A DNA stretch of 64,000 bases from Candidatus Altimarinota bacterium (GTDB taxonomy: Bacteria > Patescibacteriota > Gracilibacteria > BD1-5 > UBA2023). This document shows, in pieces, positions 1-64,000 of the stretch (the stretch's first letter is position 1; every line of letters starts with the position of its first letter). The notes beneath the pieces are model-generated. The model was given only the letters and a program-made list of their open reading frames with translations, did not search any database and was not told the DNA's origin. Where the stretch lies: NCBI GenBank assembly GCA_043770315.1, contig JAYVIJ010000040.1:2872-66871 (forward strand). The letters are read 5' to 3'. The position numbers and the translations under genes are program-made.

Positions 1-809
1 TCAGGGCTGGGCTGACAGATAGCGAGCACATCGAATACTCATCCATCTTTCTCGACTGCTGCATAAGCATGGAGCACTTCTGTCGTATAGCGATCGATCG
101 TGAACTCTCACTTATCTTTTGGGACATCGAATGGAGACTTCCAGTCGGTGATATAGACCGTATATCATTCTCTATGCAGACTCTCTATCGTCTTGCGAAG
201 GAGTGTCGCGAAGTGTCCACTCATAGGAGCGATGAGAAGCATATTTCGACCATTTGGATTTTCACTTGGTGCTTCGAACTTCACGATATCGGCGAAGTCG
301 AGACTCTCGACCGTCTCATGGGCGAAGTCGAGATTCCAGTCAGGACGATGAAACGTGAAAGTAAATGCGAGGTTTGCTCGTATATAGTTCTCTGACTGCT
401 GGAGGTGAGGAGCAAGGAGAGGAAAGACAAGTTTCAGTCTTTTTATTTGGATGAGCATTGCTTCGAAGAAAAATTTTCGAGTTTTCTGTCACTCAAGAAA
501 CAAATGATACGGGTTTAGTCCATTTTGTAGGCCAAGAAGGGGATTACTGGGTCGGAGATTTTCCTCTGCGCTATAGTCTCGTATTTCTCTCTGGAGAGCA
601 GCCATCGCATCCAGTCACATCTTCTCTTTCGGAAGAAATGGATTCACCCGACTCACGAGATCGACTACTGTAGCACATATCCTGAGTTGTACATCCCAAA
701 ACCCAAGAAGTAGGGATCCGGTATTCTGCGGAAGCTGTGGTAACCCTGGAGCCTGCGGAGATGGAAGTGACGCAGTAGCCATAAGAATGAGGATAAAGAG
801 ATGATACAT
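1..809 (-). CDS. PhaZ-family (intracellular PHB/PHA depolymerase-like) alpha/beta hydrolase; partial, C-terminus runs off the window start
   Basis: The minus-strand frame is free of TAA/TAG from 809 to the window edge, passing through in-frame TGAs (615-617, 489-491, 165-167 and two more). The translation shows blocks I recognise from PhaZ (TIGR01849-type): HRPDWNLD, NMLLIAPMSGHFATLLRKT, YTVYITDWKSPFDVP, FTIDRYT, VLAICQPS. The start is uncertain. ATG 807-809 gives a signal-peptide-like MYHLFILILMATASLPSPQA; ATG 618-620 is the alternative. Confidence 0.75.
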
Positions 810-851
810 TCTTATACTACATAATTATAGAAAAAAGCAAGACGAAGCATG

Positions 852-886
852 CTATAAAACCGCAGAAGGCTTCTGCGGTTTTATAG
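852..886. terminator. Perfect 17-bp-arm palindromic hairpin, likely an intrinsic (bidirectional) terminator after the VIT-VWA gene
   Basis: ctataaaaccgcagaag g cttctgcggttttatag. The arms are exact reverse complements, and the outer stem is A/T-rich, giving U-rich 3' sides in both orientations. It lies 11 nt after the TAA at 897-899. Confidence 0.6.
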
Positions 887-896
887 GGAGGGATTT

Positions 897-3800
897 TTAC
901 TTGAGTTGAGGGGGTTCTTCTTCCTTCACTTCTACTTTCACTTTCGGCTTTCTACGAAGGACGTACCAAGCGATCAGAGGAAAGAGGACGATGACGAGGA
1001 TATACTGGACGATACCGCCACTAGAGATACTTGATGATCCGAGAGAAAGTGCACTACTTGAAGAGGATGACCCAAGCTTGAGTCCATCCGCGTATCCTCA
1101 GTTATTGAAAGTCCCTACAGATTTCGAAGTTCATATACTCATACTTTGAGCACGCATCATACTATCATTATCCATCACTCCTCTTTCGAACATAGGAGCA
1201 GGAGATTCGCTTGCGAAGTTCTCATATTTGGTATCATATTTATCTTCTTGCTCGGAGTAACGCTCGAGATCAGCTCTTTGGCTATCGGTCTCGAGGGCGA
1301 TAAGGCTCGTAGCTTGGGTGACGATATGAGTCTGCATCGCTATAATTGCCAATTCATTCACTTGTACAGTTTTTTCATCAGAAATTTTTACAGCCATTCC
1401 CCCGTTTCCTAGTTCAATCGATGATCCGCTTAAAAAATAGAATCATGAAACTTTTACATCGATATCACCGATGCTAAGCTTACTAGTAGAATATAGATTA
1501 TACAGCTTTCCACTACGATCTGATATAGCAAAGGTATTCCCACTACTCTTTTTATTATCGAGTGTATAAAACCCAGTATCAATATAAGTTGGCCAGATAT
1601 ATTTAGCTTTTACGATAAAGGATCAATCTTCTGCAATCACTTTCTTGCTATCTTGATATCCCTGAAGCGCAGAGAGTGTGCCCGTCGATGTTCCGGTATA
1701 TTTTTCACAAGAAGTCGGAGTATTTTTTTCTTTGAAAATATCTTTAAGAGTAGTACTCAGGGGAGTATCGAGCGAAATTGCGAGGAGTGATCCTTCTGTC
1801 GCGAGGAGTGATTTCGTGACTTCAGTCTTCAGAGTACGGATACCATCACCGATTTGGATGAGGGAGATACGATTCGACTTCAGCTTTTTATAGTCGAGGT
1901 TTTGATTTTCTGGAGAGACACTTTCATAGGAGTCATCATCAGTGAGGATGACGATATTCGCATTTTCGATAGTATTATCAGCGATATAGGCGATGACTTT
2001 TGCCATATCAGTATTTCCCCAGAAGCTTATATCCGAGAGATCATATCCAGCAGAGGTCACCTCGCTATTATAGGTATAGATATCGAGGACGACTCATGTA
2101 TTTTTCCATGCGTCGATGAGTTCCTGATACCGAGCCCGTATAGTTCTATCATTGCCTGCACTTTTCGAGATATCGAGGAAGACGATATTTTTGGTAAGAT
2201 TTTTCGCAGTATTGCTGAGTTTCGAAAGATCGAGGTTTGGATAGGTATTGATATTACAGAAAAGGGGAGCTTCTCTCAGGTTTTTCATCATATCAAGATC
2301 GACGACCTTTCATCGATTCAAGAAGGCGATATCTGATGTTTTTTCTGAGTCTTGTACGTATGCTTTTGGTCATTCGACGAGACGAGTCATGACCTCCGAA
2401 CTTGTTGTAAGCTTGAGATTCAGGATATCCGTTTTTGGCATGAGAGTGAGACTCATACCTGGATGTATGGGAGTGATATAGCGGTACTGGACACGTTGGC
2501 GACCTTGGGTCTTTGGGTCATTTTTCGAAAGTACGGGGAATACTCGGAGACGATAGGTCGTCGGTCCTGTCTGTTCGAGAAGAGCAGGATCCGTATTTCG
2601 ACGAAGAGAATCAGCATATACCTTGGCTGCTGCACCGCGAGGGGCGATCACTCCGACGAGTTCGAGATTGAGTCCGAGGCGGAGGTCTGTCATGACGGCA
2701 TCAGCATCGGGAAGAGCGATGCTGTAGATGACTTCCTGATTTTGTGTATCTGTATTTTGGAATTCATAGGTGACCGTCGTCTCGAGAGCATTGATATCTG
2801 AGAGGATTTGGGACTCGTGTTTTGCAAAATTGAGTTCGACTTTTGCATTTTCTCCACGAGCGAGCATACTCGTTCCATTGGATGTTCGTGAACGATATTT
2901 ATTCACATCGAGTTCATCATCGATGGTGCTTTCTATCGATTCATCATAGATTTTTGCATAGAGGTCTCCATATCCATATCCAGTTTTATTTTTATATTGA
3001 TCCTTGAGTGCCCATTTGAGAAAGGTTATATTTGCAGCTTTTTCGAATCATTTTTTCGTATTCCCTTCTTTTTTGAGGATCGACTGGGCTGCTTGGATGC
3101 GATTTTCTATCATGAGATTCTTCCAGTTCGGAGAAATCCAGATGACGAGAAATATAAAGGCGAGACCGATACCACCTCTGAGAATATTTTTCCATGAGAG
3201 TTCGTCTACTTCTTCGAGAGTCGTCCAAGCATAGGTAAGTATGAGCCATGTGACGATACTATATGGAACGATGATGATCGAGAGGAAAAGGATAAGCTCA
3301 GAGAAATCCATATATCGAAATTCTCGGAAATTTCCCAAGAAGAATAAGACGATGAAAACAGCAAAACCGATAAGAAATGCGATAATGTATTTTTTCGAGA
3401 AATCCAAAAGATACTTTCAGAGACCGGTGTTTATCTTTGGGAATCCAGCAAGAAAGAGGAGATAGGGTGATAGGGCATAGAGTCCGCCGAAGAGGAGTAT
3501 ATACCACTTTGTAAAATCCCGTTCCATCGCATAGAGAGCTACGAGGATGATACCAATAAATATCGGAAGAGCGCTATTGACTATCAGTCCTACTACAGAG
3601 AATTCTCTCTGTATGATACGTTTATAGATACCATAGATATATATCGCTATAAGAGAAATAAGGAGGAAAATCGTTAGAGAAAATATGAAAGCATTTTCTG
3701 TAAGTTGACTCTGGAAGACCCAGTCACTCGTGGAACGGTACGAGTCATAGTAATATCCATAATTTCTTTGGAAGAGGATTTCTTTCAAGACTTTATAGGC

Positions 3801-3993: not shown

Positions 3994-5250
3994 CTATTTT
4001 TTCTTAAAGATGATGAAAGGGTGTTCTCAAACTTGTATCTGCGCATTCACGACTATATAGGGCTTTCCCTCTTCTGATATCCACTTCTTATGAGCTGGGC
4101 GGACAGAAAGTTCAAGACCATATTTTTCCCTGAAAAAATCTTGTACATATTTGCGAGTATCACGTGTGAGAGAAGGTGGTAGAATAAAAGGATGATACGA
4201 TATATCTTCATCTTTTCATCTCAGTGAATGAAGAAAACTCTTTGGAACGGCATTTTGCCATTCGGTATCTCTATCTCATAGAGAAAGATCATCGGATCTT
4301 GGACTTTGGCAATCATGAGGACTATAGTATTCTTTGTGGTCTTTATGGAGGATGACGATGACTGCGGCATCTGGAGTCGGGAAGCTCTGTGATTTCTTTA
4401 TCTCTCGGGGTTCGAGAGCCCCGCGCGTTTCATAGAATTTCCCAGATTGGATAGGATACTTGGTCCAGTGTATGTTCTGAGGATTTTTGAGATCGATCGT
4501 TGCGGCAAAGTCCATGAGGGCATTATTGATGGTTCGGACCATATTTTTACTTCAGAATTCAGTTTCTGTACTTTTGGAGTCAAAAGTACCAAAAACTTCG
4601 GGGGTGGCAACGGAGTTTTCCATCATTTGCCCTCGATTCTTTATGTTCACATCATTGCCACCCCCGATCCCCCTTGATCATGAATGCATGATGCATGAAC
4701 AAGAATGGATAAAATCCCGAAAGTCTGCTTCTATTGCTTCCTTTTCTCTCTCTGTCAGTCGATCGAGTCTCGATCCATGAAAGTACCGTGCGAATACCTT
4801 CTCGAGATTGGTATCCCAGGCGAGATATGCTTCTCAGAAGCCAAATGCCATGATAGCAGAAGATGTATATCATCATACCCCTGGGAGTTTCTGAAGGAGT
4901 GATTTTTCTCTCGGGAATTTTCCAGCATAGTCCGTCGAAATTATACTTGCAGTCTTGAGAAGATTGCGAGCACGTGAATAGTATCCCATTCACTGATAGT
5001 ATGGAAAAAATACTTCGTAGGAAGCTCATGCGAGGGCATGTACTGTCGGATACACTTTTAGGATGCGATCGAAGTATCCTCGTACTCGTTCGACTTGTGT
5101 CTGCTGAAGGAATATTTCTGAGAGCCAGATTCGATACGCGAGTATATCTTGTTCGATGGTATAGTCACGCCACTCGAGATCATGTCGACCATTTTCCTTA
5201 TACCACTCTATGAGAGTCATCCAAGGGAATGTGAGAGAAGGTTCTTTCAT
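3994..5250 (-). CDS. mutY: A/G-specific adenine DNA glycosylase MutY (apparently lacking the 4Fe-4S cysteine ligands)
   Basis: One frame runs from 5250 to TAG 3994-3996 through TGAs. Motifs: LSEIFLQQTQV (catalytic Glu context), YQ-G(TGA)-MGYYSRARNL, LPGYGGYTSSAI, AWDTNLEKV (catalytic Asp context) and a C-terminal NUDIX-like domain (AAVIVILHKDHKEYY...). Confidence 0.9.
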
Positions 5251-5390: not shown

Positions 5391-8300
5391 ATGAATACTC
5401 TTTCTCGCTTGATTGCGACATTCCTGGCAGTCGTATCTGTAGGAGCACTCGGATACTATGCGTATACACTTTCGAGTCGTACGCTTACGCTTCCATTTTC
5501 TGGATCAGAAAAACAATATGGGGATACACTTATTCTGGCGGTATCACCTCCTTCCTTGCGATTTGGAGACCACTCTGATACTCTTATTGATCCGACTGCG
5601 CTCGAATCTTCACTTATGAAGTGAGGAGTAGTTCTTCAAAAAGAATCTCTTTCGGGAGAGTATAGTGTCGAGTCGAGTAGTGCATTTGTGCGTATTCGAG
5701 ATATATCTCCAGAGAAAAATGATACTCTACCCCTTATCCTGAGCGCAGATCTCTATAATAAAAATACAACAACACCCTATCGTCTTTCTCGAGATATCGC
5801 ACTCTATCCTTCAAATACTCCGAGAGATCTCTCGATCGAGAGAGAAGGTGATCCACGAGATCAAAAATATAATATTTCCCTCTATGGTTTGGAAGATTAT
5901 ACACCAGATCAGATTCGATATTATGTTCACTATGAGTCTTCCTCTGATTGTAGTATCGTTTCGTGGGGAGCACCCAACCCATATCAGCCCTATTATCCTG
6001 CATACAAATGAGTATCGATTGTCTCTGGAGAGACTGCATCATCATCACTTCTTCCTTCATCCCCTTGGATATATAAAGAGATATTTCCAGTCATTTCTAC
6101 TCCGTCATCCAAAGATGGTCAAAAATGGATCAGTCAAATCCGACTTCCTTATGATCTTTCGCAGTCAAGAGTTTGTATTGTTGCCGGTGTCGCAGGGCAG
6201 TATCGAGTCCTTGAAGATCGCTTGAATGAGCTATTTACCCTCACAGGAGGTATGCTTCAAGCACTTTCCCCTGAATATGATATGAAGAGTCAGATAGAAT
6301 TCCGATTCTCACATGATATTTATAGTGATATAGGAACCCTCTATAGTCCTGAGTACATCAGTCATCGGCATGATGCGAAGATCGCTTTCCTTAAGGCACT
6401 GAATATCACACCAACTATCAATATAGCTCCTGAAGATCTCATGCTCACTCCTGAGAGAGCCATACTGACACTCCCTTTAAAAGAAGGAGAGAAATATACA
6501 TTTGCCCTCCAGGAACTCACCGATATTTATGGTCGAAAACAATCTTTTGAGTATAGTACTACTCTTAAAAGTGAGCCATTTCTCTCCCTCAAACTCTCAG
6601 AACATAAGCAAATATATACTCCGAGTGAGACAATTCAAGCAAAACTCTATACACTTCTTCCTCCGAAAAATACGTATTCACTCAAGCTCTGTCGGGTCGA
6701 TCTTGAAGTTTATGCTCGACTTGAGCGTATGCTTGGTGATACTTCTCGTCTCGATCAGATGGTCATACCAGAGCTTCTCTCATCCAAAGAAGTATCAGAT
6801 TGTAAACAGAAAGATATCGTCGTCTCTGCTGGTTGATATGTATCTCCTTTCACGATCAATGACTTTCTTCCCACAGATACGAAAAAAACAGGACTTTATG
6901 TTCTTGGTTTTGCAGAGGGAAAAGATACCGTGAGTTTTAAAAAATTTATCGCACCAATTATATTTTCCATAATCGATACTCATCTTACCCTGAAGGTCGA
7001 TGCGAGCGGAAAGATCATGGTACTTGCGACGGATATAGCTACTGGAAAACCAGTACCTGATCAAGAAATCAAACTTCTGAGAAATATTTCTCGTACCCAT
7101 ACAGAAAAATGGGATCCAAATACAGGAAGAACTGATAAGATCTACCTCCCCCTTACGACAAGCGCATTTGCTACAGGGATTATCATAGGGCGTACAGATA
7201 GCCAATGATATATCGATACAAAAATTGATACCCTTACGGGTATAGATGAATATGATTCAAGTCCTTATGGACTCTCCTTTGATAGTTGGTGGGATTATGA
7301 AGGACGTTATGATAGTTTTCTTGTAGAATCTCGATCATCTGAGAGATTGGGGTACCTCGTAAGTACATGGAATGATGGAATTACAGGATACAACTTCGGG
7401 ATCAAAGATTCTGATTACTCCTGGAGCAGTCGTCCAGACTTTACGACGTATCTTCATACTGATAGGAGACTCTATCTTCCATGAGAAAAGGTATATATCC
7501 ATGCAATTCTTCGAAAAAATAGTGCTTCACTTCTGATTCCTGAAGATGAGATTTTCGATATCACTATATCTGATCCTCTAGGGCGAGAAGTCAAACGTGC
7601 GACACTCAAGCCAAACGAATTCGGATCTATCTCACTTGAATATGAAATCCCGAAAGAGGGAGCATTGGGTTCTTATAGTGTGAATGTCGCTTCCACGAAT
7701 TCTCTCGAGTATATAGAGAATGGATGGTCGAATTTTCAAGTCGAAGTATTTAAAAACCCGACATTCACAGCGACGGTCGATCTTAAGAGTCCTGATCTCG
7801 AAAATGATACAATAAAAGATCTCCGAAAAACTCCGAATACAGATCCATACAATCCTTGGTATACGGATGTCTATAAGGGAAATTTCACTATCGAAGGGAT
7901 CATAAAGGCAAAGTACTATAATGGAGCTGAGATCAAAAATACACCATTTACCTATCGCGTCTACCGAAGTGATTATTATGCAGATGATTATTGGGGAGAC
8001 TGTTTTTGGGGATGTTATTATGAACCACCAGTCGAACAATATACCGAATGAAGTGGTACTATCGACGGTGAGTGATACGGCATTATCCGAATCCCAGTAG
8101 AGTTTTCATCATTTTATAGTGACTATACCTATACAGTCGAAGTCACGTTACGTGATGTTCTTACCGGTGAGGAGGTCACGACACCAGCATCTTTGGTCGT
8201 GAAACTTCCAGAAGCCTATAAGTCATTTTCACCAAATAATCCTCTGAATTTTATTCCAAAGAAGAAAATCCTCGTTCCAGGAGAGGGCCTGACAGGAGAA

Positions 8301-11294
8301 GTAAAGCCAGCTTATGGAAAGTGGGATACGAGTCTGATCGGGAAGTATCGATATGAGATTCTCGAGCGACAATATACTGAAGCACTCATCGATGATATCC
8401 GTGCAGGAAGTATGCGTATTACAACTCCTGTAGATCGTGTCATTGCGAGTGGAAGTATCACAAAAAAAGAGATCTCAGAGAAGCTCGTCGGCATGAAATC
8501 AGGAGAGTATCATCTGAAGATTATTCCTGTGACTCTTTGAGCCGAGAAGCCACCAGAGGAGAGTATCTCTGATACAATCTTCTATATTTCATGAGATTTC
8601 TCTACCCTTAAAGACAATACTCTTCGGGTCGTTCCAGAACATACTATCTATAAATCAGGAGAGAAGGCCCGAGTGATGATCCAAGTACCATTTACAGGAT
8701 CATATATTCTCATCACCAAAGAAAAATGAGGAGTGATCGATCGAGAATATACGTATCTTACCGGAAATACGCTTACTCGAGAATATACTATCGATGATAC
8801 GATGAGGCCAAATGCTTATATCGGTGTCGTGGCACTTCATCCAGGACAACGAGCTGATTCCAAAAATCGTACCTATGCTGTCGGTTACGGTGAAATCGTC
8901 ACAGATATTGCTGATAAAAAGAGTATCTTGACTCTTATACCAGACAAGAGTACATATAAAAATCGGGAAAATGTCAGTGTCGATGTCACTCTCACTGATC
9001 GATCGGGAAATCCTCTGGAATGAGAAGTCACTGTCATGGTCGTCGATGAGAGTTTGATCCGACTGCTCTGAAACATCGACCTCGATATCATACCAAAATT
9101 TTATCAAAAATATCCATTTACTGTCAAAACGGCACTCTCAGCGATCGGCATAGAACGTGATAGATTTCTCTCACGTAAATGATCTAACGGGGGATGAGGA
9201 AATAAATGAGGCGAGTGAGCTCAGATTTCTTCTCGTACTCTTTTCCAAAATACGGCTTACTATAATCCAAGTCTTCGTACAGACTCTCTCGGGAAAGCAA
9301 AAGTGATATTTCCACTTCCAGATAATATCACGGACTATCGTATCATCATGGTGGCCAATACTCGTGATTCGAAATTCGCGGTAGCCGAGAAGACCATAGA
9401 AGTTCGTAAAGACTATGTACTCGAGGTTGCAGCACCGACGATACTGAGATCGGGAGATACATTTACACTTACGGCCTCAGCATTTAATAATACTAAGCGC
9501 ATCACCCCGGTAGATATCATCCTGACTCTCTGATCTGGCGATAAGAAGATCGAGAAAAAATGATCTCTTTCTCTCGATGTTATGGAGAGAAAGGCTCTCG
9601 ATTTCACTCTCGAAGTCCCGTCTTCTTGGAAAGAGAGTATCCCGTATACACTTGAGCTTCGAGAAAAAGATACCATACTTGATAGTATCACACATAGCAT
9701 CACTCTCCCATCACCTCCGATAGTGACACAGAAAGTTCGTTCGATTCAGATATATTCAGGAGCAACATTTACTTATACTCTCCCAAAATCACTTCTCTCA
9801 AATACTGACGCGAGTCTTTCGAGTGTCGAGATTAGCATCTCTTCGACGTATGCGACCCAGATTGCTCAGGGTATTGCCTCACTCCTTCAGTATCCATATG
9901 GTTGTATCGAACAGACGATATCTTCCACACTTCCGAATCGTATCGCCCTTTCTCTCGCAGATACGCTGAAACTCCCTCTTGATATAACTAAAGCTCAAGA
10001 ATATACGAAAAAATGACTCCAGAAAATATTGCGTATGCAGCATTTCAGTGGTGGCTGGGTCTACTGGGAATGAGCCAATGAGCCCAATGCTCACATCACT
10101 CCTTATGTCCTTCGTTCACTTCTCAAGTTCCAAGAGCTCGGGGAAGATATACCACAAGAAGTATTTACCAATGGACTCAATTATATCGTAAACAACCAAG
10201 CGGAGTATGCAAAAGATCAAGATGATCTTGCAGAAGCAGTCTGGACACTCGCACTTCTCAAAGATACTCATGCACTCATGTGGTGGAGTCAGATAGATAC
10301 TGCTCGTCTTTCTCGACATGGCTATGTTTCCTATGCTTATGCGGCTCAGAAACTTGGGAAATATACTCCAGAGATAGAAAAGATGATGCTTTCCTGACTC
10401 ACAAAGGCGGATGAATCTTGGTATTGGAGTCAATATGCTGATACAGCACTTATCGCACAATTATTTATCGATCGACAAGATTCCTCGAAAGCGATTTCAC
10501 TTATTGATCCACTGATACGTGATCTTGATTTGACATCATATTATGTATCCACTCAAGAGAAGATTCAGACACTTCTTGCACTTATTTCTCTCTCAAAAAC
10601 ACAGTCAAAAATCACCTCACCACTTGGTATTGCCCTTCGATCAGAGAAGCTCATTGCTGATCTGCCTCTTACTTCAGAGAATCCGACAAATTCGATTCTC
10701 TCAAGTCGAGAGAAGGTCGGCGTGTCATATACACTCAAGCGTGATAATACGAAGATGCCCCTCTATGTCACGACGATCATATCCGACCGTCCAAAGGACA
10801 TGGTGAATATGAGTCCTTATGCAACATGAGGTGTCAGTATCAGTCGAACCTTTGAACTCATCGAAGAGTCGAAATGAGTCGATGATCGAGGAGAATTTAT
10901 TGTTCGATCTCCTGTCACGACCTTGACGTTCCAAAAATGAAGGCTTTATAAAGTTATACTGAAGGCAGATGTTCCAGTCGGATCAAGTCGTAATCTCTCT
11001 CTTGAAGACTTCTTTCCAGGAGGCTGGAGACCGATAAATGGTATATTTAATACGGAAAAAAGTCTTCTTCAAAATACGAGTTCATCATGGTGGAGTTATG
11101 TTGAGTCACGTGAAGATCGACTCCTTGCACATCGAGACTATGTTTATGGAGATGAGAAATCTCTCGAGTACTCATACTATATACGTCCAGAATCTCTCGG
11201 AGAATACCTCCTCCCTCCAGCTACAGCATATCTCATGTATCGCCCGGAGATTCATGCATATACGAAGTATGAGCGGGTAAAAGTCATAGAGTAA
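5391..11294 (+). CDS. Bacterial alpha-2-macroglobulin family protein (thioester-containing, 1967 aa), N-terminally membrane-anchored
   Basis: Ten track ORFs (5391, 5688, 6222, 6930, 7665, 8193, 8733, 9303, 9582, 10530) share frame 0. I walked all gaps: only TGAs occur until TAA 11292-11294. Motifs: MG-domain DRRLYLP-G(TGA)-EKVYI, thioester YPYGCIEQT (CIEQ at 9903-9914), QHFSGGWVYWEG, and the C-terminal LEDFFPGGW...YYIRPESLGEYLLPPATAYLMYRPE. The N-terminus MNTLSRLIATFLAVVSVGALGYYAY is a TM or signal anchor with no lipobox Cys. Confidence 0.92.
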
Positions 11295-11505: not shown

Positions 11506-11952
11506 ATGAAATGTCCAAAATGTAAAAATCTCGATACAAAAGTTATCGATTCTCGAAGTACTGAAGATGGGAAAGCTATCCGCCGACGTCGTGAATGCGA
11601 GAAGTGTGGAGCAAGATTTACGAGTTTTGAACGTCTTGAGTTTGTATCATTCCTCGTGACGAAATCTTCAGGAGAGAGTGAACCATATGATCGTACCAAA
11701 GTCGTAAATTCGATGATGAAAGCCCTCACAAAGAGAAGTGTGAATCCCGATAAGCTCGAAGATATCATCAATACTCTCGAAAATGAATGGGCACAAAATA
11801 AACAAGGTATCACTTCGAAACGTATCGGAAAGGATATCCTTCGCAAACTTCGAGATCTCGATGAAGTAGCATTTCTTCGGTATGCATCGATCTATCATAA
11901 CCATGAAAGTGTGAAATGATTTGTGAAATTCATCGAAGATGAACTTGGCTAG
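11506..11952 (+). CDS. nrdR: Transcriptional repressor NrdR
   Basis: Zn-ribbon MKCPKCKNLDTKVIDSR...RRRRECEKCGARFTSFE followed by an ATP-cone-like region. One TGA at 11917-11919 is followed by 10 more codons to TAG 11950-11952. Confidence 0.92.
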
Positions 11953-12088: not shown

Positions 12089-13108
12089 ATGAGAACGACA
12101 CTTGACTTTAATTTATTGGAACCACATATACAATCATCATCTACTATTACACTCGTTCCTCTTGGGACGACTTTTCTCCATGGATCACTCATTTCTCATG
12201 AGCTTATGGAACTCCTTGATCACGCTCAGCAAGCAAAAGAAAAAGTACTGATTCTCTATAATCGCCGTGGATCAGGACGTGCTTGGATCTGTCAAGATTG
12301 TGGAGAGTTTCCACTCTGTCCTCACTGTGATATCGCTCTTGCATATCATACGAGTCCCAAGCGACAACTCATCTGTCATCAATGTAGTTATACCGTATTC
12401 GTTCCAGTAGAATGCCAAAAATGTAGAGGTATGAGATTTCAGCCAGTTGGTATCGGGATACAGAAAATATCAGATGATCTTCATTCACTCCTCCCGAATA
12501 CGAATCTCCTTCGTATAGATTCTGATACAGTACTTGAAAAATCGAAAATCCTCTCCCATGTATGAGATATCGATATTATCATTGGAACCCATGCTCACAT
12601 CTCACTTCTCCATCATGGAGATATTGCCCATATCGTATTCCTATTATTTGAGTCAGACCTTACTCTTCCAGACTATCGAATGGAAGAAGATGTCTATCAT
12701 ATGCTGGAATATGTGAAAAAATCAGGAAAAAATCTTTTTATCCAGACATATACCCCAGACCATCCACTCCTTTCACTCATTATTGAAGGGAATTATCAGG
12801 ATTTTCTTCGGGATATGAGTCGTGAAAGGAAAGCATTTGATTATCCACCTTATAGTCAATTTGCTCTTCTGCGAATTCGCGATGCTCAGAAAGAAAAAGT
12901 TCAAGATATCATGGTAAAACTTCTCAATAAAATTACTCAAATTAAAGAAGATACCATTTTTCTTGCATCGGATCAAGATATCTGGGAGAGATTTGCAGGT
13001 GAGTGGATGCAAAAAATCATCCTTAAATGATCCAATCTTGAGCCTCTTCTTGCACAATTGGAGGTGGAGATAGTCAGAAATCGCGCGGTCACGCTCGAAA
13101 GAAGATAG
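12089..13108 (+). CDS. priA: PriA-like protein, C-terminal half only (Cys-rich Zn region, helicase lobe 2, C-terminal domain); the N-terminal Walker A/DEAH lobe is absent
   Basis: Blocks: VLILYNRRGSGRAWICQDCGEFPLCPHCDIALAYH..LICHQC...CQKCRG, VGIGIQKISDDL, RIDSDT, DIIIGTHA, LPDYRMEEDVY, DYPPYSQFALLRI. An in-frame TAA at 12086-12088 lies directly upstream of the ATG, and nrdR ends only 136 nt upstream. There are two in-frame TGAs and the stop is TAG 13106-13108. Confidence 0.8.
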
Positions 13109-15842: not shown

Positions 15843-16568
15843 TTATATCTGATACCGTATAGCTTCAAGCATTGGTTTCAGATTTTCGGGTATCTCCTTG
15901 GGCATTTTCGCATCGACGGTCACATACATATCACCAGTTTCCCCATCCATAGCACGTCATTTCCCAGATATTTTAAATTTGGTCCCTGGTTTTGTCCCGG
16001 CTTTTACCTTCAAAAAAAGATTTTTCCCATAGACAGTGCGGATGCTTACCGAAGTGTCATAGAGAAAATCAAAAAACGGTATTTCTACTACCTCCATCAC
16101 ATCAAGGTTCGGTTTTATCGTTTCTTTTTTGGGCTCTTCATGAGTATTTTTTGGTTTTTTTTGTTTTGTTCCACCGCGACCTCAGAAGAGATCCCCAATA
16201 TCGAATTCGATACCACCACTTTGTCTCGCACCTCCTCAAAATTGAGAAAAAATATCTTCGAATCCTCAGAATCATCATGATGAGGATTGAGCATATGATC
16301 ATGAGCGATAGGACTGATTACTATTTCATCCCATTCCACCAAATGGATTTCCATCAGCAGAACCAAATTGGTCATAATTCTTCTTTTTTGTACTCTCTGA
16401 AAGAGTTTGGTATGCTTCGTTGACTTCTTTGAATTTTGCTTCTGCATTTTTATCATCTTTATTTCTATCAGGATGATACTGCATTGCCATTTTTTTGTAG
16501 GCTTTTTTTATCTCTGCTTCAGATGCAGACTTCGATATACCGAGAATGTCATAATAATTTTTTGCCAT
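15843..16568 (-). CDS. J-domain co-chaperone (DnaJ/CbpA-like, no zinc-finger domain, 241 aa)
   Basis: J domain [36 protein letters not shown]. It is followed by a Gly/Phe-rich region in which many Gly codons are TGA (..[43 protein letters not shown]..). Then comes a single C-terminal beta domain ([27 protein letters not shown]). Stop is TAA 15843-15845. Confidence 0.88.
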
Positions 16569-17130: not shown

Positions 17131-17236
17131 GTGATGAGAATTATAGTATAAGTATATTGATAAATTTCACTCTGCAAATCCTTTTATAGAAATCTTCCGA
17201 TTTGCGATTCGAATGAATTTTCATATTATTTTCTGT

Positions 17237-44450: not shown

Positions 44451-46346
44451 ATGATACTCGCATCTCAGATCCGTTCACAGTATCTCGAATTTTTCAAGAG
44501 CAAAAATCATGCTATCATTCCATCAGCACCACTTGTGCCAGAGAATGATCCATCTGTGCTCTTCAACACTGCGGGGATGCAACCTCTCGTCCCATATCTC
44601 CTCGGTGAGCCACATCCACTCGGGAAGAGGCTCGCTGATGTACAGAAGTGTGTCCGTACTGGGGATATCGATGATGTCGGTGATGATACGCACCTTACAT
44701 TTTTCGAGATGCTCGGAAACTGGTCACTTGGTGACTACTTTAAACGTGAATCCATTGAAATGAGTTGGGAATTCCTCACTTCGAAATCTTGGCTTGCCCT
44801 CGATCCTGAGATGCTAAGTGTGACAGTATTTGCCGGAGATGAGAATGCACCGCTCGATACAGAATCCATAGAAATCTGGAAGAATGTTTGGATGGCGAAT
44901 GGTCTCGATTTTGGAGATGAGCGCATTGCTCGACTTCCTGCTGAAGATAACTGGTGGGCAGCAGGTCCTACAGGTCCATGTGGACCTGATACTGAGATAT
45001 TCTACTGGATGGGAGAGGGGAAGCCACCGAAGTGATCGAATAAATGAACCGACTCAAAAATGTGGATGGAAATCTGGAACAATGTCTTCATGCAGTATAA
45101 TCGTCTCGATGCAGCTACTCTAGAAAATCTCCCAGCACAGTGTGTCGATACTGGTATGGGTATAGAAAGGTGTACTGTAACACTCAATGGTATGAAGAGT
45201 GTTTATGAGACTGATTGTTTCGCTTCAGTACTCTTGAAAATCCGTGAAATCGTAGGAGAATCGAACTATGGTGAACGCTCTGCTCGTATCATCGCAGACC
45301 ATATCCGTACTGCGACACATATGATCTCTGATGGTGTCACTCCAAAAAATGTGGATCAAGGATATATCCTTCGTCGTCTCATCCGTCGTGCTATCCGTGA
45401 GGCATACAAGATGGGATATGAGAAGCCGTTCGCGAGTGAAATCGCGAGTATATATATCGAACAATTTTCAGGAATCTATACGAGCGTGAAAGACAATGCA
45501 GAGAAGATAAAAAATGAACTCAATATTGAAGAGGGAAAATTCGCAAAGACTCTCAAGAATGGAATTAAGGAATTTGAAAAACAATTTCCAGATTTTCTTA
45601 TGAAGAATGGTATTACGGTTGACGGAAGAATGGTAGACCCATCTCAATACCAAATTCATTCAGCAACTGTTTTTAGTGAATTAGTTGGTGAAATGCTTGG
45701 TTTTGAGCTCTTTCAAACATTTGGATTTCCAGGTGAAATGACACTAGAAATTATTACAGATTGGATTGAATGAAAGAGTATTAAGTTTAATAAGGCTGAT
45801 TTTCTGGTTGGATTTAATAGGAAATTTAAAGAGCACCAGGAGCTCTCTCGTACGGCTGCAGCAGGGAAGTTCAAGTGAGGACTTGCTGATGATGGAGCAG
45901 AGACCACGGCCCTCCACTCAGCGTGTCACCTGATGCTTGAGTGACTTCGTCAGATCCTCGGAACCCATGTCCACCAAGCAGGGTCCAATATCACGGCCGA
46001 ACGTCTTCGATTTGACTTCACACATCCTGAGAAGATGACCCCTGAGCAGATCGCGAAGGTAGAGGAGTTCGTAAACAAAGGTATATCTTCAGATCTCACC
46101 GTGACGATCTCGAATATGGATAAAAAAGAAGCACAAGAAGCATGAGTATCTGGATCGTTCTGGGAGAAATATCCTGATATCGTGAAGGTGTACTCTATGG
46201 TCGGTGCTGATGGTGTCGTCTACTCTCGTGAGCTCTGTGGTGGTCCTCATGTCGAGACATCTAAGGATATGGGGAAGTTCAAGATTGTGAAAGAAGAGTC
46301 GAGTAGTGCGGGCGTGAGACGTATTAAGGCAGTGTTGGATAAGTAG
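44451..46346 (+). CDS. alaS: Alanine--tRNA ligase, compact form (631 aa)
   Basis: One frame joins 44451..45035 and 45060..45773 and extends to TAG 46344-46346. Motifs: [57 protein letters not shown], then the editing-domain metal ligands [10 protein letters not shown] and ELCGGPHV and ..AGVRRIKAV at the very C-terminus. Confidence 0.92.
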
Positions 46347-46374: not shown

Positions 46375-47130
46375 ATGAATACACTCAGGAATATAATATT
46401 GTGAAGTATACTATGATTCACAATATGATTTGCTTGAATTATACCATTCGCTTATGGAATTGCGCATTGAGCAGAGTGATTCTTACTCATTCCCTTTTTT
46501 ACTAGCCTCATATGAGGGAGTGCTTGATTTTTTTCTCATTCAAGCCATCGATGATTACGAGCTATATGAATTATTTTGAGTGTAGTTGTATCGTTTAGCT
46601 TTATTTCGATAATATATTTATTTGTCGTGAAGCCAAAAATTGTAGCTTCGCAAATTACTTCATATATAAAAAGAATTCAGCCAGATTCTTTTGAATATCT
46701 ACCAGTTCTCTACGAAGGGAAGAATATCGGAATCAATATAAGGGCAAGATTTTCTATGAATCCTGATCTTAAAGATATTACCCCACATTCTTCAGGATTT
46801 CCAGTTTTGCCATATATTTCATATAATTTATATTGATACCCTAGGCTAGAATTAATCCAAGATGGGGAAATTTTTACTTTATCTTGAGTTGTATTAATCC
46901 CTCCTATTGTTATTGATAATAATCAAAATTACTGCTTATCCCAATATAGTAATATTTCAACATGATCATATCAAAAATGAATGCTTACGTGAAATCTAAT
47001 ATATCCATATTTTGAGTGAGCATGTTTACGTGGATGAGATTGTTTTACGAGGTATGAGATTCCAAAAACCGATATTACTCTCGATTTTGACCCGATAGTC
47101 TTTATGAATTTATCTAAATGTAACTTCTAA
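46375..47130 (+). CDS. Hypothetical membrane protein (251 aa, 17 in-frame TGA by my count)
   Basis: The frame containing track ORF 46576..46836 is free of TAA/TAG from ATG 46375 to TAA 47128-47130. The N-terminal Gly-rich helices (IL-G-SIL-G-FTI-G-FA-G-IIPFAYGIAH-G-AE-G-FLLIPFF) look like genuine TM segments once TGA=Gly. Confidence 0.6.
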
Positions 47131-54110: not shown

Positions 54111-55481
54111 ATGGACTACTCTATCCTCACTCGTTCCTATGATCTCCGTGGCATTTACTGAGTCGATATCGATGATGATTTTTTCTATCGTTTTGGCTTT
54201 GCATTCGCAAAAGTGACGGGTGCGACTCGTATAGCACTCTGATATGATGCTCGCAATTCTTCTTATGCTCTTATGTCGGCATTTATCTCGTGAGTGAATC
54301 GCGCAGGTGCTACTATCATCAATATAGGGAGATGCTCATCTGATATGCTCTCATTTGCGACGTGTCACTATGCGGACATCGAAGCGTGAGTGATGATAAC
54401 CGCGAGTCATAATCCCAAAGAGTATAATGGTATGAAGTCACTCTCTCATACCGGAGAGCCATATAATCTGAAAAAATATGGTCCAGCTATGGTAGAGATC
54501 ATGCAGAACATGTGAGGGAATCCCGATGGAGCCAAGGGTGATACAGAGTATCGAGATGTCCTCGAGGATTGGGTCACACAGATTCTGAAGTTCACTTCTT
54601 CTAGTACGGATTTTTCGAAATATCGTGTCGTTGCTGATGGGGGAAGTGGTGTCGCATGAGTATTCATGTCAGCACTTGCAGAAAGAGCAGGATTCAAGCT
54701 TATGCCACTCTTTCTTGATCCAGATGGGAATTTCCCATTTCATCATCCCAATCCTATGCTCGAGAAAAATCGAGAGGATGCTAAACGTGCAGTTCTCAAA
54801 CAGGGGGCTCAAGTCGCATTTATATTCGATGGTGATGCAGATCGAGTGATCCTTCTCGATGAAACAGGAGAACAAGTGAATTCTGCAGTCATTTCTACGA
54901 TCATTGCTGAGAGTATCCTCTCGAAAGAACCAAAGGCTAAATTTATTGGAAATGCAGTAACTTCACATAACTTCCGTGATTTTGTTGCTCAAAATCATTC
55001 GACCTATATTCGAGAAAAAGTCGGACATGTCTATATTCGTGAGAATATGATGTCTGATCCACTTATTGCCTTTGCTGGAGAACATTCGGCACACTACTTC
55101 TTCCGTGAGAATTATTTTATGGATAGTGGTATCGTCGCAGCGATGGTATTTCTCGATCTTGTGGTTCGATCATGAAAAGAGGTGAGTGAATTTATAAAAA
55201 AATATAAAAAATATATCACTCTTGAGGAAACGAATTTTGAAGTATCTGATCCAAAATGAGCGATCACACAACTTGCAAATATCTATAAAAATGAGAAACA
55301 TGATCTTTTTGATGGGATAACCGTAGAATATGAAGATGGAAGTTGGTGGAATTTTCGTCCGTCTTCGAATGAGCCACTTCTCCGATTCAATATGGAAGCA
55401 AAAACACAAGAGAGATTCGATTTACTCTACAGTGAGATTATAGGATATATTCATACTTTTTGAGAGGCAAGTAGTCATTAG
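54111..55481 (+). CDS. Phosphomannomutase/phosphoglucomutase (alpha-D-phosphohexomutase)
   Basis: SYDLRGIY-G, the active-site loop -G-VMITASHNPKEYNGMK, the metal loop FIFDGDADR, GEHSAHYFF, and RPSSNEPLLRFNME. Stop is TAG 55479-55481. Confidence 0.9.
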
Positions 55482-55565: not shown

Positions 55566-56330
55566 ATGCAGAAAAAAGAGGATCTCATCCAAGAAAATGC
55601 TGAGCTTATAGCCCGAATTGCGCTTGCAGAAAAGTGGATGAGAAGAGAAGTGCAGAGTGCTATATCTTCAGTGCGTCGTGCTGAGATCAAAAAAGATACA
55701 CGTAAGCATTTTGAGAATACTTTTGAGCAAGATGGAGTAGAAATGATCACTCAGAGGATTATAGATACCTTCGGTGATGCACTCAGTCGTGCACCCAAGT
55801 ATACCCTAGAGCGACTGATCGATGCAGAAATATACTGGGAGACTCTTCAGCGATATCCTCATATGGATGCGCTTCCAGTAGTACTTGCATATCAAAAAAT
55901 ACTTGATGCTTGGATCGAGGAATCACTGGTATGACCATGGAGAATCGATGAGTCTCAAAAGTGAAAGTCTAAAAATATTTCTCCTGTTTCGATTTCCTCA
56001 CTCGAAAAGGATATTGAAAATATATCTACCAAAAATTACACACTCTCGATTGGCCGATGGTATCAGATACTTATGATGATGAAAAATAGTGAGCCTTTCC
56101 CTCCCGTGATAGCCATGCTTGTCTGATTCTGGGAAACTCAATATTCTAAACTCCTATCATTGATCACTTCTGATATTTTTATTTCGAAGTTTTCTCTCCT
56201 CATGGATCGAGAGATTTTCTCGAAAAAGCGACACGAAAGAAAAGTCACCTATAGCGATGCAAAGGTGACACGTGAGATATTGATCGGATCAGGGGAATCT
56301 CCATGAATCCTTCAGCAGTTATTTCTTTAG
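55566..56330 (+). CDS. Hypothetical protein (254 aa)
   Basis: Track ORF 55566..55934 extends through four TGAs to TAG 56328-56330 (walked). I recognise no family. Confidence 0.5.
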
Positions 56331-56371
56331 TAAAAAACTTGATTATTTGCTTGATTCGGTATGCTTTCTCT

Positions 56372-56848
56372 ATGATGATCCTCGGTATCGATCCATGACT
56401 CGCGACTGTCTGATTTGCTCTTCTTGAAAAAGAAGGGAAGAGTCTCCGTATCATCGAATATTGAGTGATAGAAACAAAGCCAGGAATGATATTTTCTGAG
56501 AGACTTGTTCAGATTAGTAACGACTTACGAGAACTTATTGATACATACCGCCCGACTATATGTGGAATTGAGCGACTTTTTTTTCTTCGAAATGTCACCA
56601 ATGGTATCGATGTCGCCCAAGCTCGATGAGTGATCGTTCATACACTTGCGAGTGTAGGCATATCGATCATAGAGTTTACTCCATTGCAGGTAAAGCAGGG
56701 AATAGCAGGTAATGGCTTTGCCAAAAAACCACAAGTACAAAAATCGCTTCAGATGCTTCTGAAGCTACCCGAGATCCCAAAACCAGATGATGCAGCAGAT
56801 GCTCTGGCAATAGCATATCTTACGAGTCTCAAGATCCAATCATTGTAG
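56372..56848 (+). CDS. ruvC: Crossover junction endodeoxyribonuclease RuvC
   Basis: MMILGIDP-G(TGA 56396-56398)-LATV-G-FALLE..., PTICGIERLFF, and ..KPDDAADALAIAYL. It includes track ORF 56630..56848. Confidence 0.9.
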
Positions 56849-58662: not shown

Positions 58663-58672
58663 AAAATTATAT

Positions 58673-59742: not shown

Positions 59743-62067
59743 ATGAATCGCATATTCTATAATACACTTATATTCATCTGTGCCCTATTTGTAGGGGGCG
59801 TAGTAGTAGTTTTTTCTATACGACCAGGTATTGCTGAGGTAAAACCACTAGTAGGATCAAATGAAAAAGTATGGAGTGAGGTTATTCTTACTAAAACAGA
59901 GTCAAATGTCTATAAAATAAAAGAAGATATAGTAGATATAACTACCGTAAAGGTCTCACAAAATACTCCAATGCTCGTTGATTTTGGTCGACTAAGTTCT
60001 TTTTTATACCTAGCACCACTTGGCTCCCATGAATGAGTACTTACACAAAGTGGCGCAACTGGTATTGTGATTGGAGATGCACCCGGAATAGTATCACTCT
60101 ATGATCTTTTTCTCTCCTATACTGTTTATGATAACAAAAATAATTTTCGTATCGAGCAAATTACAAATGGAAGTTTTTATATTGGAAAAGAAGAAGATGG
60201 AAAAGTTGCAATCTATGCTATTGACTCAGCAATACGGCTAACCCTGATCAGTCAAGGTAAGGATATGACCAATCTTATGTTGTTTCCAGGTTCATATATA
60301 CGATTTGATACATCACGAAATCGTTCTTTGAACAATGCTGATTTATTCCGGACAATTCTTTCTCTCAAAGATACTGATGGTGAGGTTTTTGAATTCGTAA
60401 ATCCACGGGTGAATATCGGAGATGAACAAGATACTTTCTTTAATTATCGACTTCCAAATTCATCTATAAGACTCTTTCGTATTCTTTCGGCTCAGTTCAA
60501 ACAGGATGTAGAGGCAAAAAATAATCTCCGACAAAAATATGCAGTTTATGGCTACAACGATACTATTGTAGAAAGTCAGTGGCTTTTTAATCCAAGCAAA
60601 AAAAATCATAACATGCTTGTCGAGCTTGGATCACTTCTTGCGAAAGCATTAAATGCGAATACGAATTCCGATGCAGTTATAGGAAAAATTGGAAAAATTT
60701 ATGCTGAAGCTACAGCTCTACATATGCAAGATTCTACAGCAAAATCACTTGTTGAGCAATTTCTTCTCGACGGTCGATTTGCTCAGTATGGATGATCTGT
60801 AAATACTAAGTACAAAGAGACCTATGAAGGTATAGCAGCGATAATCGGTATCAAACGTACTGATGCTCGGTGAGAGCTTTTTCAGAATCTTGCAGATATT
60901 TATTCACGAAATCTTTTTAACCAAAAGAGTACCGATCAAGCGAGATCGATTGATACGTATGGTCCAACCGCGAATGAACTTGTAAAAACTCTCGATAGAA
61001 ATGAGATTCCTCAAAAAGATTATTTTGACATTGCAATATATGCATTTAATATTCTGAAAAAAATGGAAGAGAAAAGTCAAGTTCTCCAACAAGGTACAAT
61101 GGAAGAGGTATCGACTTATACCTATTTTACTACGTTCTTCCGGGCTTCAAATAAGTATATAGAATCAATAACAGATCTACAAAAAAAGGAAGATACTATT
61201 ATGAGTTTTTCTCGACAATTCTATGATTCTATACTGACACTTTTAGTAAATTCTCTTTATAATTCTTATGTTGTAGCTGAAGATGGTGGTTTATTTCTCG
61301 ACCCAAACTATAGAGAAGTATCGAAAGTAAAAATTCCTGATGATATTATAGAAAGCATCAAAAATTTAAATGCTACAGTAGAGATAATTGCACCATCGAT
61401 ACAAAAGGTGCTATCAAATTCCTGAGATAATGATACTGATGCAGATGCATATGTTCGTATTAATTCTAATATTGTAAGACTCAATGCTTTTGTCACTATG
61501 ATTGATCCAGAAACATATAAAGATTATATAAAAACACCATATAAAATAAATTCAGAATCTGGTGAAATACAATTTCCTCTTATCGATGCTGATACCAATC
61601 TTGTAGTTCGTCTTGATTCAAAAACAGTAGAAAAAATAAAAAATATAAAAACTTTAGCTATAGATCCACGAATCCAAGAGCTTAAAAAAATATGGCCAGA
61701 TTCAGATGCTTCCTCACTTTCTATAGAATGAAATAATATTCGTATAGAAAAAGCTCCTTATAAAATAGGTCGCTCAGGAAATGGTACCTCAAGCATATCA
61801 ATGTCAGCGCTCTATAAAGATAAGACACTTACTGATAATGTTATACACTATGGTGATTATATCATTCGAGTAGTCACAGAAACCAATAAACCATTATCTC
61901 TATCAGAATACAAATGACTTCTCCTCGACCTTGAATCGTATCTTGATTTTATCGATACAGAGGTTACAGCTCAAAATCGTGAAGTTGGAGAAATGAGAAT
62001 ATTTCCGACGAAATACCGTATTAACATAGGAGATAGTATCTATCCAGTTTCTATAAAGAGTCGTTAA
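59743..62067 (+). CDS. Large N-terminally anchored orphan envelope protein (774 aa)
   Basis: Track ORFs 59743, 60067, 61063 and 61498 share frame 1. All gaps were walked and the stop is TAA 62065-62067. There is one N-terminal TM and I recognise no domain. Confidence 0.75.
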
Positions 62068-62717
62068 TTCTTTATATTGTCTTTTTTCCAAGCTTGAATC
62101 TTTTTTTGATCCCCACTTAAAAGTATGGAAGGTACAGATTTCCCTTCGAAATTTTCTGGGCGAGAATACTGTGGATACTCTTTTTTTCCTTGGAGTGCAT
62201 ATGAGAATGATTCTTCTTTGAGAGACTCTAGAGAAAGAACTCATGGAAGCAGACGAACTACGCTATCGATCCATACCAGGGATGCAAGTTCTCCGCTCGA
62301 AACCACATATTCACCTATAGAAATTTCTTCGATCGGGAAGAGATCAAATATGCGTTGATCTATACCTTCGTAGTGACCACATATAATACAGTATTGAGTA
62401 TCATCTTGAGCATATTCTCAAGCTTTTTTTTGAGTGAGTATATCCCCGCGTGGTGATACATAGAGAAGTTTCATATTTCCATATTTTGCTCTGAGTGCTC
62501 GAAGAGCAAGTGTGAGAGGTTCTACAGTAATGATAGTACCTGCTCATCCTCCATAAGGCCTATCATCCACTCGTCTTGTGTTGCGTACGGTCCAATCAGT
62601 GAGATTATGAATATCATAACGAAAGAGCCCCTTTTCTTGGGCTCTTTTCATTATACTGCTTTCGAGATATCATTTCATACTCTCTGGAAAAAGGGAGAGT
62701 ATATGTACGTGCAGCAT
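62064..62717 (-). CDS. trmD: tRNA (guanine37-N1)-methyltransferase TrmD
   Basis: [19 protein letters not shown](TGA 62544-62546)-[34 protein letters not shown], and PQYSRPENF. It is 654 nt, in frame, and absent from the standard-code track. Confidence 0.92.
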
Positions 62718-62721
62718 AGTA

Positions 62722-63645
62722 TTATTTTATATCGAGGACTTCTACTTCAAAATAGAGAGTCTTTCCAGCAAGAGGATGAGAGTTTGGTATATCAACTTCT
62801 ACCGTCTCGCCACTGATAGCAAGGATTTTTATATTTCCTGGAGATGGTTGTCCATTGGAAGCTGGGATAGGCGCTATAGCTCATACTACAAAAGGCTTAC
62901 CAGAGAAAGGACTTTCCTCATTTTTTATAAGTACGGTAACCGTCTTATCTGTCAGTGCCTTAAGAGTGAAAGTGATTTTCTCTTTTTTTGCTACAGCACC
63001 AACTTCAAGCTTTTTTCCATAAAATGGGTTTTCTTTATTGTCTATGAGAAGTGTGACGTTCTCCCCATCGATTTTTGTTACTTTTGCCGTGACATTTGCT
63101 CCACCTGTAAGGGTCTGACCCTCTACAAGTGATTTTCCTTGTTCACCGAGGAGACTTTTTTGAACAGTCTGGACTGAGGTATCTTCGAATTGAGCTCTAT
63201 CAGTGGTGATAGTGAACTCTGGAGAAACCTCACTTTCTCGTACAGTTCTTTTCATACTAGCTTCACCATAGCCATCTATTGGGAGTACTTCTATAGTCTT
63301 TTTTTCTCCTTTACTCATACTCGCTATACCACGCTCAAAACCTGGTATGACGCTATTCGTACCGAGAGTCACTTCAAATGGTGCATAAGTGGCACCACTT
63401 TTATAGAGATTATTTGCTTTTGCTACATCCTCTTTTGTAGTTTCGAGAATTTTTCCATCAGCGGCACCTTCTCTCAGTGTGTAATTGAGTGATACAGTAG
63501 GATTCTGCATTTTCGGAGTTTCTATGGTAGCAGCAGTACTCGTTACGGGAGTAGTAGGAGTTGCTGTCGGAGCTGGAGTTCCTGGTTGGCTACGATTGCA
63601 TGATGCAAGAATAAGAAGAGAGAGGATAAGGATATACTTATACAT
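62722..63645 (-). CDS. FKBP-type peptidyl-prolyl isomerase lipoprotein (SlyD-like insert-in-flap architecture)
   Basis: Lipobox LILASC. Track ORF 62881..63645 continues through one TGA to ..SHPLAGKTLYFEVEVLDIK and TAA 62722-62724. GFERGIASMSKGEKKTIEVLPIDGYG is FKBP-like. The gene ends 4 nt before trmD. Confidence 0.85.
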
Positions 63646-63689
63646 AAGAGTTTTAAATAAAAAAATACCATTTTAGTATATAAAAAATC

Positions 63690-64000
63690 CTATTTTTTCA
63701 ATCCCATAATTGCTAGCTCTATGTCAAATATACGTCATAATTCAGGATCTTTTCTTCATTTTCCGCTTCTATATGCGATAGTGAGTCAAAGTACTTTTTC
63801 ATAAAAATGAAAGAGATCAGTATAGTTTATACGTGATTCATAGGATTTTTGTATCACAAATGCATGAGCTGAAATCATATTTCCTATCTGACTCTGATTT
63901 TTTCAGAGACTTTTATAATATTTTACGTAGACACTTGTACGAATAAGTCAGAGAAAACTTGCGAGAAATGCATGTATATTCATTCCTTCCAGGAGAGTAT
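63690..64000 (-). CDS. Hypothetical protein, C-terminal fragment (gene continues beyond the window end)
   Basis: A minus-strand frame is open from the window edge to TAG 63690-63692 through five TGAs. I recognise no family. Confidence 0.4.

Follow-up and report, generated by a model that had tools for sequence, protein, structure and literature searches.

Glycine has been reported as the meaning of UGA in two groups of bacteria, the Gracilibacteria and the Absconditabacteria, in which a tRNA-Gly with the anticodon UCA is present and release factor 2 (RF2) is absent (PMC8629427). For this reassignment, that work cites Campbell 2013 and Rinke 2013, and Hanke et al. (2014, PMC4032931) reported a BD1-5 bacterium in which UGA has become a glycine codon. 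The Codetta program further predicts that CGA and CGG are read as tryptophan in the Absconditabacteria and that CGG is so read in some Gracilibacteria, both codons being rare (PMC8629427). We analyzed a stretch of 64,000 bp with a GC content of 38.3% (hereafter, the window), in which UGA is almost certainly an ordinary glycine codon and UAA and UAG are the sole stop codons, that is, in which translation table 25 is used. The recoding as such is already known, table 25 dating from 2013, and a preliminary description of the window had rightly presented it as not new.

That description had proposed that TGA is a sense codon throughout the window, the fragments of each conserved gene being split by TGA only, and the reading frames bear this out. 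Under table 11, stop-to-stop open reading frames (ORFs) of at least 100 amino acids cover 57% of the window and the longest has 284 amino acids; with only TAA and TAG as stops, ORFs of this size cover 99% and the longest reaches 1994 amino acids. Freeing TAA or TAG instead gave longest ORFs of 339 and 293 amino acids, respectively, which is nothing like the gain obtained with TGA. As a control, ORF coverage with and without TGA as a stop was computed in the same way for 80 loci of other species that contain an alanyl-tRNA synthetase (AlaRS) gene, taken from the matches listed for this protein; all AlaRS comparisons below are likewise among the matches listed. These matches were mostly distant homologs that use the standard code, and a single one, at 57% identity, was a relative with code 25. 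Freeing TGA had no effect in 79 of the 80 loci; a gain was seen in one alone, that of the closest relative among them, L006. Low GC content thus does not produce the signal, which is specific.

A gene set curated with TAA and TAG as the sole stops comprises 58 genes at a coding density of 93.8%, where about 94% had been predicted. These genes contain 353 in-frame TGA, 222 TGG and 997 GGN codons. In-frame TGA is present in 55 of the 58 genes, makes up 26% of all glycine codons and ranks second in use among the five of them. The prediction that genes end in TAA or TAG held for all 57 complete genes (38 TAA and 19 TAG), which are separated by short intergenic gaps. The warning that a standard-code annotation would be badly wrong was also justified, as table 11 breaks every conserved gene into fragments of at most 284 amino acids. 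It should be noted that long antisense ORFs are common once TGA is sense; over the phosphoglucosamine/phosphoglucomutase gene (54111-55481, + strand; 456 amino acids, nine TGA codons, with the TASHNP loop), a longest-ORF caller picks the wrong strand.

The breakage of every conserved gene under table 11 could also be taken to mean that TGA is still a stop and that the window is made of pseudogenes, assembly errors or frameshifts. We consider this refuted, its probability being extremely low. There are 353 in-frame TGAs, yet TAA and TAG occur nowhere but at the ends of genes; the frame is kept across every TGA, and the TGAs sit on glycines of catalytic motifs. Independent assemblies of several samples in the European Nucleotide Archive (ENA) yielded the same sequence, and in relatives with 57-80% identity, 44 of 99 TGA positions have TGA as well.

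The amino acid inserted at TGA was read from homologs that use the standard code, with TGA translated as X for neutrality. Fifteen Escherichia coli K-12 orthologs, taken as DNA, were aligned locally. At the 68 aligned TGA sites, E. coli has glycine 35 times (51%), alanine six times and tryptophan never, an absence with a probability of 3e-13 if TGA encoded tryptophan. For comparison, GGN faces glycine at 153 of 223 aligned sites (69%), and TGG faces tryptophan at 10 of 29 (34%) and glycine at none. In alignments with PDB chains, which cover 35 TGA sites, glycine is the majority residue at 20 and tryptophan at none; the remaining sites are variable columns or hold small residues, with some exceptions. 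Two AlaRS columns with TGA, 476 and 565, hold glycine in 73 and 75 of the 79 homologs with the standard code, another is alanine in 71 of 79, and no TGA column has tryptophan. The glycine content of the encoded proteins is 4.9% without TGA and 6.6% with TGA as glycine. It had been claimed that TGA falls on invariant glycines, and a tabulation of the residue at each in-frame TGA in conserved families had been proposed; glycine leads in this tabulation and tryptophan never appears. UGA is glycine in the window, not tryptophan.

The individual genes illustrate this result. In UvrC (17213-19174, + strand; 653 amino acids, 12 TGA and no TGG codons), the TGA-encoded residues 28, 43, 196, 303 and 505 are glycine in the E. 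coli protein, and 28, 43 and 505 are also glycine in PDB chains, where the glycine sites are P-G-xY, YV-G-K and DGGx-G-Q. The TGA of TP-X-VY, which is the P-G-xY glycine of the GIY-YIG domain, lies at 17294-17296, and that of DGGK-G-QL at 18725-18727 (both + strand). In TsaD (19892-20893, + strand; 333 amino acids, seven TGA codons), the TGAs of P-G-L, SG-G-HT, L-G-L and AG-G-VSAN all correspond to glycine, and these four are glycine sites in the PDB alignments as well (the last as G-G-VSAN). The class A penicillin-binding protein (PBP), which has GT51 and transpeptidase domains (27013-28908, - strand; 631 amino acids, 11 TGA codons), carries a TGA at 28573-28575 (- strand) in RG-G-STITxQ, where RG-G-STIT is glycine, as is xG-G-STIT in PDB chains. 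All four TGAs of RuvC (56303-56848, + strand; 181 amino acids), among them the one of GIDP-G at 56396-56398 (+ strand), are glycine both in E. coli RuvC and in the PDB alignments. In TrmD (62064-62717, - strand; 217 amino acids, four TGA codons), the TGAs of RPYGG-G (62544-62546, - strand) and LLP-G-VL are glycine, with YGG-G and P-G-VL the corresponding PDB sites. The MutY-like HhH-GPD glycosylase (3994-5250, - strand; 418 amino acids, 10 TGA codons) has glycine at Q-G-MGYY, at the LPGV-G hairpin and at GF-G, and PDB chains have it at x-G-LGYY and LPGV-G.

The motif assignments of the preliminary description stood, with one correction. Each of the five positions it quoted, in UvrC (two), the GT51 domain, RuvC and TrmD, is an in-frame TGA in the motif named, and Pfam and PDB searches agree with its identification of UvrC, TsaD, the GT51 PBP, RuvC, TrmD, the MutY-like protein and DnaJ. 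A TGA in the Gly/Phe region of DnaJ had been noted; seven of the eight TGAs of the dnaJ-like gene (15843-16568, - strand; 241 amino acids) lie in the Gly/Phe-rich linker. Conserved tryptophans had been said to use TGG, and the tryptophan of the conserved WTAKEA motif in the 4'-phosphopantetheinyl transferase (41329-41892, + strand) is indeed encoded by TGG at 41716-41718. The TsaD motif had been given as LGL-G-FPGG: the TGA is there, but the motif actually holds two TGAs (MM-X-L-X-FPGG), the second being glycine or aspartate in homologs.

A second line of evidence needs no outside proteins. Codons were compared with the syntenic DNA of three relatives, L088 (UvrC 79% identical), L089 (67%) and L006, with the comparison limited to curated genes; once TGA is read through, ORFs in a wrong frame or on the antisense strand also remain open. 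The 99 aligned TGA codons of the window face TGA 44 times, GGN 37 times (all four glycine codons) and TGG never. Conversely, the 346 aligned GGN codons face TGA 55 times, and the 53 aligned TGG codons face TGG 45 times and TGA once. As window TGA exchanges with GGN and not with TGG, even though TGG is one transition away, it is a synonym of GGN and never of TGG; UGA and GGN interchange as synonyms within the lineage. When UvrC is aligned with 119 relatives, eight of its 12 TGA columns show hardly any letter besides G and the "W" of table-4 translation; in the ten sequences translated with table 25, these columns are nearly always G (8 to 10 of 10 in each). A tblastn search of the flanks of the AlaRS loci with all window proteins gave almost no further homologs.

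These data also bear on table 4, in which UGA encodes tryptophan and which is used by the Mycoplasmatales, the Entomoplasmatales and some insect endosymbionts. Such a reading would agree with TGA being clearly a sense codon, and it is the one chosen by public gene callers, the stored proteins bearing W at every TGA. It is nonetheless highly improbable for the window. E. coli has tryptophan at 0 of 68 TGA sites as opposed to 34% of TGG sites, no tryptophan occurs at the 35 PDB-aligned sites, and in relatives TGG faces none of the 99 TGA codons and GGN faces 37. The tryptophan content, 1.1% under table 25, would rise to an abnormal 2.85%; UvrC has no TGG at all, and its table-25-translated relatives contain 0-0.15% tryptophan. 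The table-4 reading is refuted by the E. coli alignments and by the codon exchange with relatives.

Several observations weigh against UGA being a plain glycine codon in this organism. Glycine stands opposite 51% of the TGA sites in E. coli and opposite 69% of the GGN sites (Fisher p = 0.013). Residue 97 of the PBP, encoded by TGA, corresponds to the conserved arginine of the GT51 "RA" motif, and residue 127 of the MutY-like protein (LPGVG-R) to an arginine in E. coli; TGA also stands on a conserved alanine at PBP residue 173 and AlaRS residue 498. As to the decoding apparatus, ARAGORN detected no tRNA gene in the 64-kb window, and none was found in about 3 kb past its right end or in same-organism loci; the GGQ motif of class-I release factors was absent from the ORFs of the window and of the 3-kb extension. 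At a further site, PBP residue 407, two PDB PBP1a chains have tyrosine and E. coli MrcA has glycine. The sites without glycine fit ordinary substitution at less constrained positions, since CGA to TGA is a single step; a minor second reading of UGA besides glycine, though improbable, would be compatible with the sequence data. The TGA of PBP residue 97 is at 28615-28617 (- strand), and both PDB PBP1a chains as well as E. coli MrcA have arginine at this position. The CGA to TGA step is an arginine-to-glycine change under table 25 and a nonsense mutation under the standard code.

The use of TGA is also uneven among genes. The rplJ and rplL genes (29213-30434, + strand) have 20 glycine codons and no TGA among them (P = 0.002 given the overall share of 26%). 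TGA accounts for six of 52 glycine codons in alaS (44451-46346, + strand; 631 amino acids) and for one of 24 in the FKBP gene, and its share reaches 71-75% in small or membrane ORFs, with 17 of 24 in one small membrane ORF. The genes set against rplJ/rplL in this respect are g39 (46375-47130) and g18 (24204-24422).

This unevenness raises the question of whether TGA has a dual meaning, being glycine in most genes while also terminating some, or being read inefficiently or ambiguously depending on context. In favor are the lack of TGA in rplJ/rplL (0/20), its rarity in alaS, the lower conservation of TGA sites relative to GGN sites (p = 0.013), and the suggestion by Shulgina & Eddy that wobble at U34 could allow ambiguity between UGA and UGG (PMC8629427). 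We nevertheless judge a dual meaning very unlikely, as no sign of termination at TGA was seen. The TGAs are spread evenly along the genes (27-44 per decile) without a pile-up in the last decile. The alignments with E. coli orthologs end no more than 15 residues short of the C-termini, and late TGAs in them are still glycine; in RlmE (rlmE/ftsJ, 31668-32267, + strand; 199 amino acids), whose four TGAs are all glycine in the E. coli protein, residue 197 is a TGA-encoded glycine two codons before the TAG stop. Furthermore, every complete gene has its own TAA or TAG stop and is followed by a short intergenic gap. Minor codons are normally avoided in highly expressed genes, and the avoidance of TGA in rplJ/rplL is normal behavior for a minor codon. 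Uneven use and lower conservation are what is expected of a minor or younger codon, and they do not show ambiguity.

The decoding apparatus was also sought in related metagenomic DNA. A tRNA pattern composed of identity elements and the UCA anticodon drew 120 metagenome stretches, 47 of which have a tRNA(UCA), nearly all of one conserved family. Its members are 76 nt long plus an encoded CCA, with a GCGGGGG acceptor stem, U73 and the loop CUUCAAC. Where the host contig has sufficient length for a verdict, TGA is sense in most cases, and some contigs carry homologs of window genes close to the tRNA: NrdR and PriA directly beside it in L113, RsmB about 0.9 kb away in L118, L122, L124 and L216, and Cmk at a distance of a few kb in L126. 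Because the pattern had imposed the identity elements, the test was repeated through the protein encoded next to the tRNA. In the protein-anchored loci with enough upstream DNA, the same tRNA was found within 500 nt in 20 of 20 cases, and it shows G1:C72, C2:G71, G3:C70 and U73, features that were not imposed here. The tRNA(UCA) of the window's own population was sought through the same neighbor protein, and the tRNAs obtained came from other samples with another GC content. An nhmmer search with the tRNA(UCA) family gave no match in the window or in same-organism loci. The window contains no tmRNA gene, and its Rfam scan found no family; the 304-bp gap upstream of rplJ (28909-29212) gave no sign of an L10 leader. 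Judging from the lineage and from the literature, UGA would be read by a dedicated tRNA with the anticodon UCA that carries the glycyl-tRNA synthetase identity set G1:C72, C2:G71, G3:C70 and U73, and RF2, which would recognize UGA, has presumably been lost.

A tRNA with the anticodon UCA could also point to selenocysteine, and ARAGORN does label the lineage tRNA "tRNA-SeC", only on account of its anticodon. The probability that the TGAs of the window are selenocysteine codons is practically negligible: they number 353 and are spread over 55 of the 58 genes, and none is reported opposite a cysteine in E. coli or PDB homologs. The lineage tRNA itself has 76 nt, a normal variable loop without the long arm and a 7-bp acceptor stem with glycine identity elements. 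The selenocysteine reading is refuted by the alignments.

In the Gracilibacteria, the tRNA(UCA) is followed on the same strand by a gene for a conserved, very basic protein of about 110 amino acids (20 of 20 protein-anchored loci, with GC contents of 0.20-0.57). The protein sequence runs MANSHGL...KKQAAARKLAK...IDERGFFKKGKKKN.ITK...DFYGMPR; it belongs to no Pfam family, and its 555 homologs are all annotated as hypothetical. The loci, which lie outside the window, are L226:9739-10333 and its equivalents in L227-L246, and also L134, L140, L153, L163, L186, L194, L215 and L225. A tRNA-Gly(GCC) or a tRNA-Arg(GCG) often adjoins the gene. A link between this protein and UGA decoding is speculative. 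In its fullest form, the idea would be that UGA is not a fully equivalent glycine codon and that the basic protein is a lineage-specific factor for UGA decoding, acting in the maturation or modification of tRNA(UCA) or in its fidelity against UGG. We regard this as unlikely; it draws on the exclusion of TGA from ribosomal-protein genes, its under-use in alaS and its enrichment at less conserved glycine sites and in small or membrane ORFs.

As for the host, all named hits among the best 120 UvrC homologs are Candidatus Gracilibacteria or Candidatus Altimarinota, at 50-61% identity, in line with the initial guess of Gracilibacteria or Absconditabacteria. The taxid of Altimarinota, 363464, is the one given for Gracilibacteria by Shulgina & Eddy (PMC8629427). 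Window proteins were also found on several ENA metagenome contigs. With the placement taken from best hits rather than from a phylogenetic tree, we are highly confident that the window is a piece of the chromosome of a bacterium of the Gracilibacteria (Candidatus Altimarinota, Patescibacteria/Candidate Phyla Radiation, CPR) that uses table 25.

Gene finders choose table 4 by coding density. The public protein collection holds table-4 translations of the window genes, with W at 12 of 12 UvrC TGA sites, and TrmD and the FKBP protein are present in it only in their W forms. On a sister public contig (L003), the table-4 calls missed RuvC in favor of an antisense ORF of 229 amino acids, and they shorten Cmk to 142 amino acids as opposed to 179 in the window. 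For the window genes, storage under table 4 means that 353 residues are wrong, including many in catalytic glycine motifs, and such errors propagate into profile hidden Markov models, predicted structures and analyses of conservation for CPR bacteria. Codetta-type tools do recognize table 25. The finding matters mainly for this practical consequence, which is real but also known.

Some further genes of the window deserve mention. The identities of SmpB, RlmE, RsmB and Cmk were confirmed by Pfam and PDB searches. NrdR (11506-11952) is conserved to an exceptional degree, being 97% identical to that of a relative whose UvrC shares only 67%; its cluster at 90% identity has 116 members, and its single TGA is publicly translated both as glycine and as tryptophan. 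The gene that follows nrdR (12089-13108) codes for no more than the C-terminal half of PriA (339 amino acids, with the Zn-ribbon region); the N-terminal helicase half does not adjoin it, and the relative L089 has the same short form. An alpha-2-macroglobulin-like protein of 1967 amino acids (5391-11294), with MG2, A2M, TED and bMG10 domains and 24 TGAs, is an unusual cargo for a small CPR genome and is kept at 65% identity in L089. The AlaRS (44451-46346), with six TGA codons, is a short form of about 630 amino acids. Its nearest homologs, counted as species representatives, come from CPR bacteria, Spirochaetes, Lentisphaerae, Clostridia and archaea at 46-57% identity, a patchwork that suggests horizontal transfer of the short form.

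No codon other than UGA is reassigned. In the E. coli alignments, the most frequent partner of each remaining sense codon is its standard amino acid; ATG is the one exception (leucine 26, methionine 23). CGA is the most used arginine codon (234 codons, or 117 per 10,000, among about 20,000), and CGG occurs 43 times (21.5 per 10,000). E. coli has arginine at 27 of 51 aligned CGA sites and at six of seven aligned CGG sites; in relatives, both codons exchange almost only with CGN and AGR, and no TGG is among the codons listed opposite them. In the Absconditabacteria, CGA stays below 37 and CGG below 7 per 10,000 (PMC8629427). Being abundant and read as arginine, CGA and CGG speak against the Absconditabacteria pattern and indicate a plain table-25 code in a Gracilibacteria lineage. 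The extended Absconditabacteria code, in which CGA and CGG are tryptophan, is ruled out by the arginine alignments and by the abundance of both codons. The window is thus a clean case of a Gracilibacteria lineage that keeps CGA and CGG as arginine, which bears on the reported patchy occurrence of CGG as tryptophan.

Set beside the known codes, the window resembles table 4 of Mycoplasma/Spiroplasma and some endosymbionts in having UGA as a sense codon, UAA and UAG as stops and a low-GC reduced genome, and it differs in the amino acid, as its TGA never aligns to tryptophan and never exchanges with TGG. With selenocysteine recoding it has in common, through its lineage, the reading of UGA by a tRNA with the anticodon UCA; here, however, the recoding is genome-wide and context-free, at 353 sites, with glycine rather than cysteine in homologs and a lineage tRNA that lacks the tRNA-Sec architecture. 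The extended code of the Absconditabacteria (SR1), a sister lineage, includes the same change of UGA to glycine, whereas CGA and CGG remain arginine in the window. With table 25, the SR1/Gracilibacteria code, the window shares frequent in-frame UGA aligning to glycine, UAA and UAG as the sole stops, a low-GC CPR genome (38%), Gracilibacteria as the nearest named relatives, and related contigs with a tRNA(UCA) bearing G1:C72, C2:G71, G3:C70 and U73. There is no difference in kind from table 25; the host is fairly distant from named genomes (UvrC at most 61% identical, and 79% to the nearest metagenomic relative). Every sequence-level feature that defines table 25 is found in the window, whereas at least one feature disagrees in the case of table 4, of the extended SR1 code and of selenocysteine recoding.

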